64,000 nt of DNA. Origin: a virus. Made by a program: the position numbers and the translations under genes. This document shows, in pieces, positions 2,278 through 54,269 of this stretch. The notes below the pieces were generated by a model. The model did not search any database. It worked only from the letters and a program-made list of their open reading frames with translations, and was not told the origin of the DNA. The DNA lies in IMG/VR virus record IMGVR_UViG_3300036861_001106, positions 1-64,000 of that record; one strand, 5' to 3'. How positions within the stretch are numbered: the stretch's first letter is position 1; each line of letters begins with the position of its first letter.

Positions 2278-2536
2278 TTTGGGCCTCCGTTGCTCCCCGC
2301 AGCGGTCGAAGTCCGGGCTCGTCCACCCGGTGCTGGTCGCCGCAGAAGGGGCAGTAGGCGGCCATGAGGACGGGGAGTGGCCTCCGTGGCCGCCTGTCCT
2401 TGTCGAGCTTGTAGAGTGGGACCTGGGTCCTGGGTGGTAGGTGCTGGCCACTCTTGAGGTCTAGCTCCAGGGGGATGTCGAGCCCAGCGTTGTGCTCGGC
2501 CAGGGCCTCGTTCATGCGGGTGATGCAGTCACACAC
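2270..2536 (-). CDS. small Zn-binding phage protein
   Basis: MCDC...YCPFCG, a common phage pattern. Confidence 0.7.
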   Translation of the reverse strand: MCDCITRMNEALAEHNAGLDIPLELDLKSGQHLPPRTQVPLYKLDKDRRPRRPLPVLMAAYCPFCGDQHRVDEPGLRPLRGATEAQSA

Positions 2537-2780
2537 TTTGTGCCTCCGGCTCGTCCTTCACCCCCTCCTCACGCACTGGTGTGACCCAGGAGGACAGGAA
2601 GGTGCCTCTGTCCCACATCTCGATCGGCTTCCAGTCGGGCCGTTCTGTCGCCATTTCCCGGAAGATGGCGCCACCGTGCCGCAGCACGCGGTAATGCCCC
2701 ATGACGTCGGTCTCGACGATGACCCATGGCTCCTTCGTCGAGTTGTAGGCTGCCAGTCGCCGCGCTCTCTCCAGGGTCAT
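2529..2780 (-). CDS. hypothetical protein
   Basis: ATGA-coupled to the HTH gene. Confidence 0.55.
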   Translation of the reverse strand: MTLERARRLAAYNSTKEPWVIVETDVMGHYRVLRHGGAIFREMATERPDWKPIEMWDRGTFLSSWVTPVREEGVKDEPEAQSV

Positions 2781-3070
2781 CTTGCGCCTCCGTCCAGGTT
2801 CTTCCGCGGGCGCCCACTCCGCGGCCTGTCCTGCAGTCCTGCCACCCCCTCCGCGTTGAACCGGCGGCACCACAGCCGCACGCCGGTGGGACTCAAGCGG
2901 AGCTGCTCGGCCACGTAGTGGGGACCTGCGCCGGCGGTGAGGAGGATGATGGCGCGGGCGCGGCGGCCCTGGCGGGTGTCCCTTGCCACTCCCTGGTCGT
3001 AGGCCAGTGCGTGCAGCTCGGTGCGCTCAGCCGTGGTGGGCTGGCGTGGGGTGATTCGTCGCTCGCTCAA
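2777..3070 (-). CDS. helix-turn-helix protein resembling the IS630-family N-terminal HTH
   Basis: RARAIILL...VAEQLRLSPTGVRLWCRRFNAEGVAGLQDRPRSGRP; no DDE domain follows. Confidence 0.8.
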   Translation of the reverse strand: MSERRITPRQPTTAERTELHALAYDQGVARDTRQGRRARAIILLTAGAGPHYVAEQLRLSPTGVRLWCRRFNAEGVAGLQDRPRSGRPRKNLDGGAR

Positions 3071-3303
3071 CTTGTTCCTCCGTCCGTCCGTGTCGTTGCT
3101 TTACCTGTCATGTTGCTCGGCGGCGCTGTCAACGCCTCAAACCCGTCACAGGCGCACCCCTCAACCTGGCACGGCTCAGCCACGTCATCGACGTCGTGCT
3201 CAAGCCACAGGTGGCCACAGTGGCACAGCTCAGCGTCAGCTTCCTTGTCCACCTCGCTCCTCCTCACAGTCGTGGCTCCCGGTCGAGCCACCGGTCGATC
3301 CAC
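3067..3303 (-). CDS. small Cys/His metal-binding protein (start uncertain)
   Basis: CHCGH...H...C...CAC pattern. Confidence 0.5.
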   Translation of the reverse strand: MDRPVARPGATTVRRSEVDKEADAELCHCGHLWLEHDVDDVAEPCQVEGCACDGFEALTAPPSNMTGKATTRTDGGTS

Positions 3304-7312: not shown

Positions 7313-9754
7313 ATGGCACTCTCACCGACCGGTCGCATCCCCAAGTTGCTGTGGTCGGAGCGCTGGCAGGACACGATTCAGCGCATGCGCACCGACAACC
7401 ACGTGTGGTGGCAGCTCCTCAAGGCCAACGCCGAGAAGACTGGCACCGCTGGCCAGCGGTACGGCGACACCGGCCTCTGGGCCACCATCATGTTCCAGGC
7501 CACGGGGGACAGCGCCTACGCCACCCGCGCCCTGACCCTGCTGCGGCCACTCCTCCTGGACACCGCCGTCAAGAGCGCCAACTGGACGCGCTCCAACGGG
7601 GCGGAGCAGGCACTCCTGTTCGACTGGCTCAACCCGGCGCTCACCGGCGCTGACCGGCAGCTCTACATTGCCGCCCTCAACCGGTGGGCTGACCAGGCGA
7701 CGACGAGCCAGTTCTCCCCTAACTTCCCAATCCGCACTGACGACTCCGACCAGACGGTGGGGAACTACTTCCAGTTCGCCCTGCTGGCGGTGGCCACTGC
7801 CGACGACAACCCGCGGGCGCAGGAGTTCCTGAACCGTTCCTACGTGGGGGGGCTCACCCCCACGGCTGCCGACCGCACCTCCCTGCGGAACGCCATCAGC
7901 GAGTACTGCACGAACCTGGCCGTCGGTGGCATGTGGCCGGAGAGCACGCAGTACAACCACGGCACGCTCTCGCTGCTCACCCTCGGCGTTGAGGCCCTGC
8001 GGCCAGCCACCGCCGTGGACTCCTTTCCCGAGGTCACGGCGCTGCTGCCCGCCCTCGCTGCGTCCCAGCTCTTTGAGGTCACGCCTGACCTGGCCCAGCC
8101 CTTCCAGTGGGGGGACAATGAGAACCCCCGTGACCTGCGGCTGTTCCAGTACGTGACCCTCCTGGGCATGCTGCAGGGGGCCACGCAGTCGAGCCCAGGG
8201 CCGGTGAGTGCCTACCTGACCAGCCTCATCGCTGACTTGGTGAGTCGATTCGGTGCCACCGGCTTTGGCTCGGCGGAGCCCTGGGCCCGGCTGTTCCTGT
8301 TCTACAACCCCTACCGGCTGTCAACTGATTGGCGCACTGCCCCCCGCACCTTCTTTGCCCCGGGGCAGGGCATCCTGATTCACCGCCAGGCGGACCAGCC
8401 GGTCACGGGTGCCCTGCTCGGGGCGCACTTCCGGCCCAGGCAGTCCCTGGTGGACCACCAGGTCAAGTACTTCGGGGACTTCCAACTGTACCGCCGTGGC
8501 GAGTGGGCGCTCACGCATCCGATCGGGTACCAGGGGCCGCCCAACCAGGGCGAGGGCACCAACACCATGCTGCACAGTGGGCTCTCAGCCATGGCGGAGC
8601 GGCAGGTCACGGCGCAGGAGTCGAGCAGGGATGGCGCCTACAGCTACCTTGCCGGCACGACGAGCGGTCCCTACTATGCACCGCCCTACTTCAGCGCACC
8701 CGCGTCGTTCATGGACGAGTGGACCCGGTCCCTGCTCTACCTGCCCGGCACGCCCGGCACGCCCGGCACGCCGGTGGGTGCCACCCCAACTGTCGTCACG
8801 CCCGACGTGCTGATTGTCCATGACCGCGTGAACAGCACGCCGATCCGGGCAGTCGACCTCCCGAGGTACCGCGGTGCTGACCAGGCCCGGATCAAGGCAG
8901 CCAAGCACCCGAAGGAGTGGATCATCCACGCGCCGGTCGCACCCACCGTCACCCTCCAGGGGCTGCAGTGGGTCACCACCAAGGGTCAACGGGTGGCGGT
9001 GGACACCCTGCTCCCACTGGGGCAGGAGCGGGAGGTCATCGACGAGGACACCCTGTGGACGGACACCTACCCCAACCCGGCCAAGTCGGAGCAGAAGTGG
9101 CAGGTGCGAGTTGCACCCACCGTGGACGTGCCGCTGGTGAACTTCCTGAACGTCATCCAGGTTGCCGACCCTGCCGGCAGTGGCACGGTGTTCCCTGCCA
9201 GGCTCGTGGGCGACGCTGACGGTGTGCTGGTGGGCGCCTTTGTCGCGCGGCCCAATCAGCAGGCGGTGCTGGCGTTCTTCCCTGCCAATGGACCAAACCT
9301 GCAGGCGACGCGCCTGACCATCCCGCTGAGTCTCCTTGACGAGCGGCAGGTCGACGCCTACGTGGCTGGAATCGACGTCACGCAGGACTGGTTTGCGGCG
9401 GTGGATGGGAGGTTGGTCACGCCCCTGCGGATCTTTGGCTCCAACCTGCTGCGATTCAGCCTTGCGCTCAAGGAGGGCAGCCACACTCTTGAGCTGGGCA
9501 GTGCCGTGCGGTCCTTGACGTTTAAGCTCTTCGCCGAGGGGCTCACCGGTGGGACCAGTTTCTTTCTGGATGGTGAGCAGCGGTTGAGCTTGACCTTTCC
9601 AACCCTTGCAGAGGCCAAGGAGGTTGCTCAGCGTGCGGTGCGGCTGAACCCGCTTTTCACGCTGGTTGTGGAGGACTTGACCACGCCGGGCACTCGCCGG
9701 CTGCACAAGTACACGCTGGTCATGAACTACGCGGTGGAGGAGGTGCCCTTGTGA
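7313..9754 (+). CDS. heparinase II/III-like (polysaccharide lyase-like) protein
   Basis: helical N-half with GMWPESTQY and DW/WGD motifs; beta-rich C-half with HQ...GDFQLYRRG and LIVHDRV. Confidence 0.55.
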   Translation: MALSPTGRIPKLLWSERWQDTIQRMRTDNHVWWQLLKANAEKTGTAGQRYGDTGLWATIMFQATGDSAYATRALTLLRPLLLDTAVKSANWTRSNGAEQALLFDWLNPALTGADRQLYIAALNRWADQATTSQFSPNFPIRTDDSDQTVGNYFQFALLAVATADDNPRAQEFLNRSYVGGLTPTAADRTSLRNAISEYCTNLAVGGMWPESTQYNHGTLSLLTLGVEALRPATAVDSFPEVTALLPALAASQLFEVTPDLAQPFQWGDNENPRDLRLFQYVTLLGMLQGATQSSPGPVSAYLTSLIADLVSRFGATGFGSAEPWARLFLFYNPYRLSTDWRTAPRTFFAPGQGILIHRQADQPVTGALLGAHFRPRQSLVDHQVKYFGDFQLYRRGEWALTHPIGYQGPPNQGEGTNTMLHSGLSAMAERQVTAQESSRDGAYSYLAGTTSGPYYAPPYFSAPASFMDEWTRSLLYLPGTPGTPGTPVGATPTVVTPDVLIVHDRVNSTPIRAVDLPRYRGADQARIKAAKHPKEWIIHAPVAPTVTLQGLQWVTTKGQRVAVDTLLPLGQEREVIDEDTLWTDTYPNPAKSEQKWQVRVAPTVDVPLVNFLNVIQVADPAGSGTVFPARLVGDADGVLVGAFVARPNQQAVLAFFPANGPNLQATRLTIPLSLLDERQVDAYVAGIDVTQDWFAAVDGRLVTPLRIFGSNLLRFSLALKEGSHTLELGSAVRSLTFKLFAEGLTGGTSFFLDGEQRLSLTFPTLAEAKEVAQRAVRLNPLFTLVVEDLTTPGTRRLHKYTLVMNYAVEEVPL

Positions 9755-50935: not shown

Positions 50936-51307
50936 GTGCCAGCGTCACTGAGAATGCTCGACAGCGACGAGTCCACGGTCATCACGACGTCCGATCAGGG
51001 GAACGTGCCGACCCCGGGCTCGTCCACCGCCAAGAAGTTCTTCGTGCAGAACTTCGGCACCTCGACAGCGGAGGACGTCGTGGTCACGATCGAGGCAGTG
51101 GGGACCAACGACGGGGCGGACTACACGCAGATCGCTGCGGATGTCGCGGGCTCGCCGGGGACGTTCAGCCAGAGCGACGTCAACCTGGGCGACATCGCTG
51201 CCTTGGACGACGCACCCTTCTGGGCGCAGATTGTCCAGCCGAGCGGCCTCACCGCTGACAACAATCCCCGGCGCAGCAGCCTCGTGGCGTCGGGCACAAC
51301 CGTCTAG
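50936..51307 (+). CDS. putative virion protein (Ig-like, acidic)
   Basis: FVQNFG..TA..V.V, VNLGDI; GC3 bias. Confidence 0.55.
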   Translation: MPASLRMLDSDESTVITTSDQGNVPTPGSSTAKKFFVQNFGTSTAEDVVVTIEAVGTNDGADYTQIAADVAGSPGTFSQSDVNLGDIAALDDAPFWAQIVQPSGLTADNNPRRSSLVASGTTV

Positions 51308-51314
51308 GAGCACC

Positions 51315-51575
51315 ATGGGCAAGCAGGCTACGGACGTCGACGTCAAGACCACCACTGTTGAGCGCCACCTGGACCAGGCGACGGCGGACGCGCATGAGCT
51401 GGTGCCGGGCGACTGGTGTGTCCTCCTGAACGAGGAGGGCTTCGAGACCGGGCGGTGGGGCATCGTGTGCAACTCCCTGCGCAACACCGCGCACACCCTG
51501 GAGGTGCGGCTGGGGGCTGACCCGATCCGCACCTTCCCGCGCCGCAAGCTGCGGTGGCTGGGGCCGTTGGACTAA
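51315..51575 (+). CDS. small SH3-like hypothetical protein
   Basis: LVPGDWCV...WGIV...VRL. Confidence 0.55.
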   Translation: MGKQATDVDVKTTTVERHLDQATADAHELVPGDWCVLLNEEGFETGRWGIVCNSLRNTAHTLEVRLGADPIRTFPRRKLRWLGPLD

Positions 51576-51585
51576 AGGAGAGGCA

Positions 51586-52161
51586 ATGGAGCGACGGGAC
51601 CTGTTTCGCAAGGCACTTGGCGCGGTTGCTGGCACAGCCTCGGCGCTGCTGGTGGGCCGCTACGTTGACCCGCCGGTGAGCGTGGCACGGCTGGAGGCGA
51701 CAGCCCTGGCGCCAGCCACGTTGGGGTTCTCCAGCCCGCCGCTTGAGCCGGGCAGCGTTGAGTGGTACTTTGCGGACGGCACCCTGAAGGGGACCACCGT
51801 GGTGCCCATCATCAATTACAAGGAAGATAGTGATCGCTACTTCATCCTTGCTGGTCACGTGCCGGCCATGTTGCTGGGCCACTGGTCCAAGACCCGGGTG
51901 CTTGACGTCGGTCTTGCCTGGACGTACTTGCACGGTGAGCGCGGTGACCTGACCCTGGGTGTGCCGGCAACTGGTCCGCTGGCCCCGGGGACCCTCTTCA
52001 TGTGGGCGGAGGGTCCGGCGGCTGGCCGCTGGGGCGTCGTGACCAAGCCCTACCTGCAGTTGCCAAGCATCCAGCGCCATCTGGCGGACGGGAACTTCGA
52101 GGCGATGCTGGCCACCGAGGAGGGTCGTGTCCTCCTCGTGCACCGCAGCCAACTGGGCTGA
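51586..52161 (+). CDS. protein with Tat-like N-terminus
   Basis: MERRDLFRKALGAVAG twin-arginine pattern; AAGGAG SD. Confidence 0.6.
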   Translation: MERRDLFRKALGAVAGTASALLVGRYVDPPVSVARLEATALAPATLGFSSPPLEPGSVEWYFADGTLKGTTVVPIINYKEDSDRYFILAGHVPAMLLGHWSKTRVLDVGLAWTYLHGERGDLTLGVPATGPLAPGTLFMWAEGPAAGRWGVVTKPYLQLPSIQRHLADGNFEAMLATEEGRVLLVHRSQLG

Positions 52162-52172
52162 GGGAGACCACC

Positions 52173-52340
52173 ATGACACTCAACCTGCTGCAGACTGTCG
52201 ACGCCCCGGAGAAGCCCATGGACCCGACGGCCCCGTGGTGGCCCAGGGAGGAGCCCCTGGCGCCGCCCACGGAGCCGGACGTGCCCTACGAGGCGCCGCC
52301 GGCGGACGATGAGCCGGACGACGATGAGGATGACGACTAG
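52173..52340 (+). CDS. small Pro/Asp-rich protein
   Basis: GGGAG SD, ATG; acidic tail. Confidence 0.5.
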   Translation: MTLNLLQTVDAPEKPMDPTAPWWPREEPLAPPTEPDVPYEAPPADDEPDDDEDDD

Positions 52341-53203
52341 CCGAAGCGGAGCTGGTCCCGGTACTTCGGGAGCGCCAGGTAGTGGTCCAGGACCCGCTGG
52401 CGCTTCCGGGGGAGGTAGATCGTGGCCCCCTCGTAGAGGAGGTTCACGATGGGGAGGCACTGAGCGTTGCCGTGAAACTGCAGCTTCCAGGCGGTCTTGC
52501 TGTTCTTGGCAGCGACGGTGTGACCACCAATCTCTGGTAGTTCGATTTTCAGATACTCATGTGCAGCCTTGGCAAATGCTTCGGTGGACACGATCTTGAT
52601 GGCGGCGTTCGGTGGGCATACCCCATCCTTGCGAGGGCGATTTCCAGCCTGGGATCGAAACATGCCGTCGCCGTCGAAGTAGCCGCGAAGATAATGCGGC
52701 TGCAAACGCCACGAGATGAAGTGCCAGGTAAGCTTTGTCGTCTTTCCTGGTATGATGCCAAATTTCTCAACATCTCGTAGAAGGTTGACCGAAACCAATG
52801 CGAGCCGGCTCGTGGGGTGTCCATTCGCAAGGTAATGGTACAGGGGATTTTCACACTCTGTGTCTCTCCTGAAAGACTCCAGGTGATCGGCATCTTTCGA
52901 TGAAAGATTTACGATTACAGAGTTTCTCTGCGGACAGGCGTAGCCGTCTGCAGCAAGGAAACCAAGCCAGTAGGCTTGGCGTTCAGTCTCAATTGAAGAA
53001 AAGTAGCCTTCATTGAGGCTGAACTTTCGCTGGCAAGCTGATCGGTCGCGCCTAGTTATGCCTGCCATTTTCAGACAGGCGTAGATTGGCATCTCTGAGC
53101 AGCCAAACAAAGCAGCGAGTTCGTAGGCGCTCTTGCCCTCTCGGTAGAGACGGCAAACGACTTCCTTCTGACATTCTGTGAGATGGCCTCTGTAGTTGCT
53201 CAT
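52337..53203 (-). CDS. free-standing double-motif LAGLIDADG homing endonuclease with N-terminal HTH
   Basis: AYWLGFLAADG and HYLRGYFDGDG; lower GC; opposite strand to the operon. Confidence 0.92.
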   Translation of the reverse strand: MSNYRGHLTECQKEVVCRLYREGKSAYELAALFGCSEMPIYACLKMAGITRRDRSACQRKFSLNEGYFSSIETERQAYWLGFLAADGYACPQRNSVIVNLSSKDADHLESFRRDTECENPLYHYLANGHPTSRLALVSVNLLRDVEKFGIIPGKTTKLTWHFISWRLQPHYLRGYFDGDGMFRSQAGNRPRKDGVCPPNAAIKIVSTEAFAKAAHEYLKIELPEIGGHTVAAKNSKTAWKLQFHGNAQCLPIVNLLYEGATIYLPRKRQRVLDHYLALPKYRDQLRFG

Positions 53204-53208
53204 ATCGG

Positions 53209-53237
53209 AGTCTACAGATTTTGTCTCCAAATGTCAA
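53209..53237 (-). promoter_or_regulatory. promoter for a leaderless LAGLIDADG mRNA
   Basis: TTGACA(53237-53232)-17-TAGACT(53214-53209), 5 nt before ATG at 53203. Confidence 0.7.
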
Positions 53238-53295
53238 CTGGCTGCCACGACTTTTTGCGGGAGCGTGGCTAAAAAGTGAAAGGAGGTGCGGTCTC

Positions 53296-54269
53296 ATGGC
53301 CGCTACCTTTCTCGTGGAACCAGCGTAACGGAGCGAGCGGCACGGCGACAGACCTCGGATCAAGCGGAAATTTGGCTTCAAGAAGTTGGCCCCTCGCGTA
53401 GGAATGCGTGAGTGAAAACGGCGTGAATTGCGGGAAGCCTACAGCGAAGGCCATGGTAATCCGCAGCCAAGCTCGACAGGGCACTGGTTGTCGAGAAGGT
53501 TCAGAGACTAGAGGGTGAGTCCCAACAATAAGCCCTCCACGAGCGCGCCGCACCCAGATCGGGTGATGAGATAGTCCAAGCATCGGGGAAACCCGGTGAA
53601 CTAGAACTTCAAGACCACGGACACGACGGGGATTGGAGATTACGCCGCGAATCCGGTCTCAGCCGGCTCGAACTCAATGGAAGTCGTACTGCGGATGCAC
53701 TTCACAGGGTCTGCGGCCCCTCCAGCCTGAAAGGGCTGGTCGTGATGGCGTGAATTCGGGGAAGCCTACAGCGAAAGCCATGGTAATCCCGACCCAAGCT
53801 CTCCAGGAATGGTGAGAAGGGCTAGAGACCAGAGCAAGTAGACGAGACCCGTCGAACGCTCCACGAGCGCGCCACACCCCTCGGGGTGATGAGATGGTCC
53901 GACACTCCGTGGAAACGCGGAGAGCCTTGGATAAAGAGCCAAGGTGTAACTGGTGCCTTCAACCGCATCGCCGACTTCCGATTCTGGCAATCGACGGCGT
54001 TCTCGCCGTCCACCGGCTTGCAGGTCTTCTGGTCCGGCACGCAGGTCATCTACCTGCAGCCGACCACCGGCACGTCGTCCATCGCCACGTCGTCCATCCC
54101 GACGACCGACCCTGGCACGGCGAACGTCAGCGTGGGTGGCTCCCTGACCGGATGCCTGACGACATCTGGTTTTACGGACCACATCTACCTTCAGCTCAGG
54201 ACTGCGTCCAACGCTGCGGCAGGTGACACATCGCTCGGAACTTTCACGGGCAGCTACACTGAGAACTAA
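53296..54269 (+). CDS. putative virion protein in three exons (53296-53377, 53605-53710, 53956-54269); needs a +1 shift at ACC TTT C
   Basis: AGGAGG SD; joined product ~166 aa: MAATFSWNQRNGASGTATDLGSSGNLA/NFKTTD...RMHFTG/SFNRIADFRFW...YTEN. Confidence 0.75.
53378..53604 (+). ncRNA. group I intron 1 (227 nt, ORF-less)
   Basis: P AATTGCGGGAA, Q AATCCGCAGC, R TCAGAGACTA, S GAGATAGTC; P1 GGCU/GGCC with U-G; P10 GAAGUU/AACUUC; terminal G. Confidence 0.92.
53711..53955 (+). ncRNA. group I intron 2 (~245 nt, ORF-less)
   Basis: P AATTCGGGGAA, Q AATCCCGACC, R CTAGAGACCA, S GAGATGGTC; P1 GGGU/GCCC; 3' site G53955 (alternative G53952). Confidence 0.88.

Follow-up and report, generated by a model that had tools for sequence, protein, structure and literature searches.

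Free-standing homing endonuclease genes of phages take up positions between conserved genes, one of which is cleaved, frequently at a distance of hundreds of base pairs (PMC2988022, PMC6083498), and such genes cluster around essential phage genes (PMC10448857). The free-standing nuclease mobE also mobilises the neighbouring nrdB intron in trans (PMC2790892). Collaborative homing has been proposed as the path along which an ORF-less intron and a free-standing nuclease come to form a mobile intron, and only a small number of cases have been described. For F-CphI and the psbA intron of cyanophage S-PM2, for T7-like phages and for the terminase of ICP1, cleavage by the enzyme at the intron insertion site has been demonstrated or proposed (PMC6083498, PMC3984707, PMC10448857).

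Here we analyzed the first 64 kb (hereafter "the window") of a 109,530-bp IMG/VR virus record with direct terminal repeats, in which a LAGLIDADG nuclease gene lies back to back with a gene interrupted by two group I introns (hereafter "the host gene"). The locus resembles the intronless homing of the T4 Seg and Mob enzymes and the trans-homing of mobE/nrdB in that an optional nuclease gene lies between conserved genes, with the flanking gene as the expected target (PMC2988022, PMC2790892). As in mobE/nrdB, co-conversion could carry along a neighbouring intron that has no working nuclease. The T4 enzymes belong to the GIY-YIG or HNH families, whereas the window enzyme, a putative nuclease, is a LAGLIDADG protein with a helix-turn-helix (HTH) domain and is accompanied by two introns instead of one. 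The original prediction held that collaborative homing had been described with other nuclease families, and the literature agrees: the enzymes of the described collaborative or trans-homing cases are the Endo VII-motif F-CphI, HNH or T5orf172 (PMC6083498, PMC2790892, PMC10448857). The locus also departs from those cases in that relatives of the window possess the nuclease without the introns.

Two further parallels can be drawn. As in "HEG islands" (PMC10448857), genes of the LAGLIDADG, Endo VII and HNH families are found immediately upstream or downstream of one conserved gene across relatives, but the gene bracketed here is also a hotspot for introns, with at least six insertion sites. The enzyme itself is similar to ORF036 of Bacillus phage 0305phi8-36, a member of phrog_4645 termed a "mobile intron protein" (26-30% identity over ~90% of the length). 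ORF036 is annotated as intron-borne in a DNA polymerase III gene, whereas the window copy is free-standing and lies on the strand opposite to the interrupted gene.

Layout of the locus, the introns and the host gene

The phage is an uncultured, high-GC soil phage, whose DNA was found in two soil metagenome runs and, among the runs listed, in no RNA run; its GC-content is about 66%. Among its relatives, synteny is kept for a methyltransferase, a GT9 glycosyltransferase, a 123-aa gene, the host gene and a 308-aa gene. The features of the locus are as follows:

50936-51307: conserved 123-aa gene
51308..52336, plus strand: ~1 kb of extra DNA between the 123-aa gene and the nuclease gene, absent from related loci
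52337..53203, minus strand: putative free-standing homing endonuclease gene encoding 288 aa, with two LAGLIDADG motifs behind an N-terminal HTH (ORF, profile matches, alignment)
53209..53237, minus strand: promoter-like site TTGACA-17-TAGACT (consensus scan alone)
53280..53286, plus strand: AAGGAGG, a Shine-Dalgarno sequence of the host gene, 9 nt before its conserved ATG 53296 (sequence reading)
53296..53377, plus strand: host gene exon 1, codons 1-27, 82 nt against 81 expected (homolog comparison)
53378..53604, plus strand: group I intron 1, without an ORF and 227 nt long, following codon 27 in phase 0 (Rfam, pairings, homolog colinearity)
53605..53710, plus strand: host gene exon 2, 106 nt, codons 28-62 plus 1 nt (homolog comparison)
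53711..53955, plus strand: group I intron 2, without an ORF and 245 nt long, within codon 63 in phase 1 (Rfam, alignment with intron 1)
53956..54269, plus strand: host gene exon 3, codons 63-166 plus the stop codon (homolog comparison)

The extra ~1 kb contains two ORFs, at 51586-52161 (191 aa) and 52002-52340, and no homolog of the 191-aa ORF was found elsewhere. The stop codon of the nuclease gene overlaps that of the upstream plus-strand ORF (CTAG, 52337-52340). As had been claimed from the letters of the DNA, the nuclease gene lies outside both introns and on the opposite strand, and its ATG is 92 nt away from that of the host gene, where ~90 nt had been estimated. The distances from the nuclease start codon to the two introns are 175 and 508 bp.

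Both introns were identified with the Rfam model RF00028, which matched 53369-53598 (plus strand) at 79.4 bits relative to a gathering score of 50, and 53701-53922 (plus strand) at 46.7 bits, just below the gathering score (E = 1.4e-10). The Rfam scan revealed no group I intron in the genome besides these two. Intron 2 is 68% identical to intron 1 (alignment A4), and the lengths of 227 and 245 nt are too short to leave room for a nuclease ORF. The guide sequence of intron 1, GAAGUUGGCC (53382-53391), forms a P1 of 4 bp with GGCU at the end of exon 1, including a U.G pair at 53377, and a P10 of 6 bp with AACUUC at the start of exon 2. These pairings support the junctions of intron 1 independently of the protein alignment. 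In intron 2, P1 is formed by GGGU of the exon and GCCC of the intron. U53377 and U53710 immediately precede the 5' splice sites, and the introns end in the guanosines (omega-G) G53604 and G53955. Joining the exons at intron 2 gives FTG-S-FNRI, as in the homologs, and once both introns are removed, colinearity with the 166-aa homologs extends from codon 5 to the stop codon. Both introns are predicted to be spliced. The twin introns of the original prediction, down to their end at position 53955, are confirmed.

The exon borders of the host gene were set by comparison with about 100 intron-less 166-aa homologs, and the frame of exon 3 has 118 homologs, mostly of 166 aa. Together, the joined exons measure 502 nt and not 501: four bases separate TTT (codon 5) from TGG (codon 7) in the window, against three in every homolog. 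This extra nucleotide at codon 6 places the conserved ATG 53296 out of frame with the rest of the host gene, and the sole in-frame start upstream is GTG 53276. A Logan assembly of the probable source sample, obtained with a different assembler from the same data, is identical over the whole stretch, including the extra nucleotide (depth 16.5), which argues against an artefact of the assembler. The contigs of the second soil run (X2) leave 52094-53981 uncovered except at two short imperfect matches around 52300 and a further one within intron 1.

The host protein presented no match in Pfam or PHROG, its relatives in the Atlas are viral hypothetical proteins, and the gene was not found in cultured phages. 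Its AlphaFold model, which is confident (pLDDT of 90.9), is a beta-sandwich with only middling matches to pilin-like or Ig-like folds (Z up to 6.4). The position of the gene, after a set of glycan-building genes and before virion genes, suggests that the protein may be a component of the virion.

The LAGLIDADG nuclease gene

The longest ORF of the nuclease gene spans 52337..53230 (minus strand) and reaches back to TTG 53230; we place the start at ATG 53203 instead, because the alignment of homologs (A2, 14 sequences) positions the N-terminus there. The ORF is matched by the Pfam family LAGLIDADG_3 (28.5 bits, cut-off of 22.5) and by phrog_4645 "endonuclease" (6.7e-45). About 200 homologs were retrieved, many of which carry additional N-terminal HTH domains of the resolvase type. 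Both motifs expected of a two-motif monomer are present in the enzyme, as LGFLAADGY and LRGYFDGDG. Across A2, LAADG and FDGDG are invariant, as are D86, D177 and D179; the window enzyme keeps the 19 invariant columns, and its ORF is full length and colinear with the homologs up to a conserved C-terminal RFG. The A2 profile also matched the PDB structure 2dch, a "putative homing endonuclease" (1.5e-8), and, weakly, I-AniI and I-HjeMI.

The closest homologs of the enzyme are P0120 and P0121 (54% and 50% identity, respectively). Searches of viral contigs with the window enzyme and with P0146 did not return close relatives of the nuclease, and a scan of genome contigs with P0121 yielded distant matches only. 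Four nucleases can be paired with a host protein (P0121 with P0002, P0130 with P0004, P0146 with P0055 and P0149 with P0239), the adjacency of the genes being presumed in each pair from the equal lengths of their contigs.

The nuclease gene is present in a single copy in the 109.5-kb genome. It has a GC-content of 55% and a GC3 of 64%, relative to a GC3 of 87-89% in the neighbouring genes. Upstream of it, the minus-strand site TTGACA-17-TAGACT (53237..53209) presents 10 of the 12 consensus positions, and its -10 element ends 5 nt before ATG 53203. No other promoter-like site of its kind was identified by a consensus scan of 2.6 kb, for which chance predicts 0.5 sites. The gene had been credited with its own leaderless promoter. 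The match to the consensus is real, but a match says nothing by itself of function, and from the spacing a leaderless mRNA is plausible.

Overall, the full length of the ORF, its invariant catalytic aspartates, its low GC3 and the promoter-like site make the gene look functional and recently acquired. An alternative is that an earlier invasion left behind a gene that is now decaying or inactive, without influence on the introns today. Such decay is common among homing endonuclease genes once they are fixed, and the frameshift in the adjoining host gene suggests that this copy of the genome may not be under full selection. The full-length ORF, both catalytic aspartates, all 19 invariant columns and an intact promoter-like site speak against a remnant, and we consider this explanation quite unlikely.

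Nuclease genes and introns in related loci

We collected the loci of the host gene from viral contigs (36) and from metagenomes (80), which yielded 102 unique loci. The metagenomic set consists of the 80 best-scoring loci and therefore favours uninterrupted host genes. Both flanking genes were available in 23 loci, and in 17 of them the spacer between the 123-aa gene and the host gene measures only 9-67 nt. The same slot holds a minus-strand LAGLIDADG gene in three of the 23 loci (L003, L042 and L048; 879-1163 nt), whose host genes are all intron-less, and in three others (L006, L007 and L056) a plus-strand Endonuclease_7 gene of ~615 nt. The window nuclease is an optional gene between two genes that are adjacent in relatives.

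Across all 102 loci, a free-standing endonuclease gene lies directly upstream of the host gene in seven (three LAGLIDADG, three Endo VII and one HNH) and directly downstream of it in six (Endo VII, HNH or LAGLIDADG). Since L056 has endonuclease genes on both sides, this makes 12 flanked loci in all, and the host gene is intron-less in 11 of these 12. Introns, for their part, were found without a LAGLIDADG gene. In L030 and L031, an intron bearing an HNH gene is inserted in codon 29, at 4 nt from the first intron site of the window, and L037 has introns in codon 5 and at about codon 70. In L094, whose upstream flank is missing, one intron occupies the first site of the window (after codon 27) and is 77% identical to intron 1 over the available part, with a second intron around codons 46-48. 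Taken together, the relatives present introns at six or more sites of the host gene. We did not count L032 as an additional site: its match to the host protein ends at residue 104, and an intron was not detected there. Truncated database proteins that start or end in intron-derived peptides hint at further intron sites.

The window is the only locus of the sample in which a LAGLIDADG gene and introns occur together, and the LAGLIDADG orthologs in the same slot are distant from the window enzyme (29-41% identity) and may have other targets. The nuclease and the introns are independently distributed in this sample: L003, L042 and L048 have the LAGLIDADG gene without introns, and L030, L031 and L037 have introns without it. 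The co-occurrence that would be expected of a single unit was not seen.

This distribution weighs on strict collaborative homing, by which the enzyme would recognize an uninterrupted intron site, the intron would protect the carrier, and the nuclease gene would spread with both introns after a single cut. Several features of the locus are consistent with this scenario. A free-standing nuclease gene adjoins ORF-less introns, for which F-CphI and the psbA intron, the T7-like phages and ICP1 provide a precedent (PMC6083498, PMC3984707, PMC10448857). The carrier genome needs some immunity, and intron 1 splits one of the two most conserved stretches of the host gene (the first 20 nt are the most conserved 20-nt stretch and the site of intron 1 falls in the second most conserved one). 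This conserved site is only ~175 bp from the nuclease gene, as the scenario predicts, and the intron-borne HNH of L030 and L031, a nuclease of another family, has its target 4 nt from there. However, the LAGLIDADG genes of the same slot adjoin intron-less host genes, as do nearly all the flanking endonuclease genes, and a single enzyme accounts for at most one of the two introns. Moreover, P0002, the presumed companion of the 50%-identical nuclease P0121, is uninterrupted at both intron sites of the window. We therefore regard strict collaborative homing as doubtful. The original prediction of a collaborative unit is retained in part: a free-standing nuclease gene does lie beside ORF-less introns and their joint spread is plausible, but the distribution does not support a dependent partnership or an immunity conferred by the intron.

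The intron-less neighbours of the orthologs argue in the same way against another role of the LAGLIDADG protein, that of a trans-acting maturase for both introns or of a DNA-binding regulator in place of a mobility nuclease. Known maturases are encoded within introns, and the catalytic residues of the window protein are conserved. The N-terminal HTH domain would be compatible with such a role, and some LAGLIDADG proteins are maturases (PMC3984707). We nevertheless consider a maturase or a regulator highly improbable, and the chance that the locus calls for a reading other than the four considered in this study appears very slim as well.

We compared the nucleotide identity of exon 1 with that of exons 2 and 3 between the window and the nuclease-bearing loci, and no clear co-conversion tract emerged. 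The first codons of the host gene deviate in every nuclease-bearing lineage: T4G in L003 and L048, an ATA start and T4S in L042, and the frameshift in the window. An immunity based on polymorphism of the first codons is a lead only, since ~27% of the nuclease-free loci deviate too, the lineages are few and the criterion was defined post hoc.

Proposed intronless homing in a recurrent slot and its significance

On balance, we lean towards the view that the nuclease gene is an ordinary free-standing homing endonuclease gene, spreading by intronless homing in a recurrent slot, and that the introns are likely passengers of co-conversion. In a mixed infection, phages lacking the nuclease would be cut by the enzyme at a conserved sequence, located within the 5' part of their 166-aa gene or beside it. 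Repair would then copy the nuclease gene together with flanking DNA from the carrier genome. The two ORF-less introns would be independent selfish elements, belonging to a family that has colonised many sites of the host gene, and they would not be needed for the immunity of the carrier. They would probably gain only by riding in the co-conversion tract, on the model of the trans-homing of the T4 nrdB intron by mobE.

The layout of the locus, the intact nuclease motifs, the foreign base composition, the slot and the distribution among relatives are observed, and the activity of the nuclease, its target, the co-conversion and the splicing are what we infer. Given their short distances from the nuclease start, the introns would probably be co-converted with the nuclease gene, so that nuclease and introns may plausibly spread together by this route. 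Free-standing nucleases can cut hundreds of base pairs away from their own gene (PMC2988022), and the intron sites therefore stay among the candidate targets of the enzyme. A collaborative unit based on a LAGLIDADG enzyme that cuts at codon 27/28 (or codon 63) and spreads the nuclease gene with two sibling introns would be the first of its kind, a prospect that we judge unlikely.

The locus-wide hotspot is more interesting than the single nuclease gene, which is probably an ordinary free-standing homing endonuclease gene. It offers a natural test bed: free-standing nucleases of three families recur in the same slots, one HNH gene is carried by an intron, and ORF-less sibling introns occupy no fewer than six sites. 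If the enzyme cuts at an intron site, collaborative homing would extend to the largest family of homing endonucleases. If it does not, the locus remains a record of independent selfish elements accumulating around one conserved target, where they can travel together by linkage.

Selfish elements around the host gene

The conserved 166-aa phage gene that hosts the introns (53296-54269 in the window; loci L003-L118 among the related viral and metagenomic sequences) is a selfish-element hotspot. Six or more distinct sites within it (codons 5, 27/28, 29, ~46-48, 63 and ~70) are interrupted by group I introns, and free-standing LAGLIDADG, Endonuclease VII or HNH genes lie immediately upstream or downstream of it in 12 of the 102 loci.

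The gene is also found duplicated in tandem at one locus (L024, 5481-6498), where the two copies have diverged (40% and 49% identical to the homologous protein P0007).

In the window, the two introns are inserted at the following sites:

53374-53377/53605-53613, insertion site of intron 1
53707-53710/53956-53962, insertion site of intron 2

Both sites present GGNU 5' of the intron and CUUCAA starting one or two bases 3' of it. This likeness could reflect a site preference of the window's intron family, or it could be due to chance, since a Phe codon follows both insertion sites.

Reading frame and start of the host gene

Relative to all homologs, exon 1 in the window contains one additional nucleotide: within 53308-53316, four bases are found in place of the three-base codon 6. 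The conserved ATG at 53296 is consequently out of frame, and GTG at 53276 is the sole in-frame start. The extra nucleotide adjoins the position of the codon 5 intron site of locus L037. A true frameshift, a start codon that has shifted, or an error in sequencing could account for it.

At several related loci, ATA or ATC replaces the ATG start (L042, at 4001; L006, L007, L056 and L105), which leads gene callers to choose codon 20 or an upstream Met. Three of these loci (L006, L007 and L056) also carry an inserted Endonuclease VII gene upstream.

The nuclease-intron region and its flank

In X2, a metagenome run from a second soil sample, contigs identical to the window end at 52093 and resume at 53982, a gap that brackets the nuclease-intron region. 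This gap could correspond to population variants of the region, or the repeated introns could have broken the assembly there. About 1 kb (51308-52336) separates the nuclease gene from the conserved 123-aa gene and is missing from all related loci. The 191-aa ORF that it contains (51586-52161) matched no homolog but itself among 5.8 billion proteins.

Relatives of the introns in other genes and phages

Other viral contigs of high GC content (L203-L209) carry introns ~75% identical to those of the window, located in genes other than the 166-aa one. In Bacillus phage Tavor_SA, an unannotated segment (9244-9366) is 78% identical to the core of intron 2 (window 53749-53871) and is presumably an unannotated group I intron. 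Among the ~75% identical introns, the one in L208 abuts an ORF:

2304-2526 (-), intron like those of the window
2516-3295 (-), ORF encoding NUMOD3 and endonuclease I-like domains

These two elements may constitute another nuclease-intron pairing.
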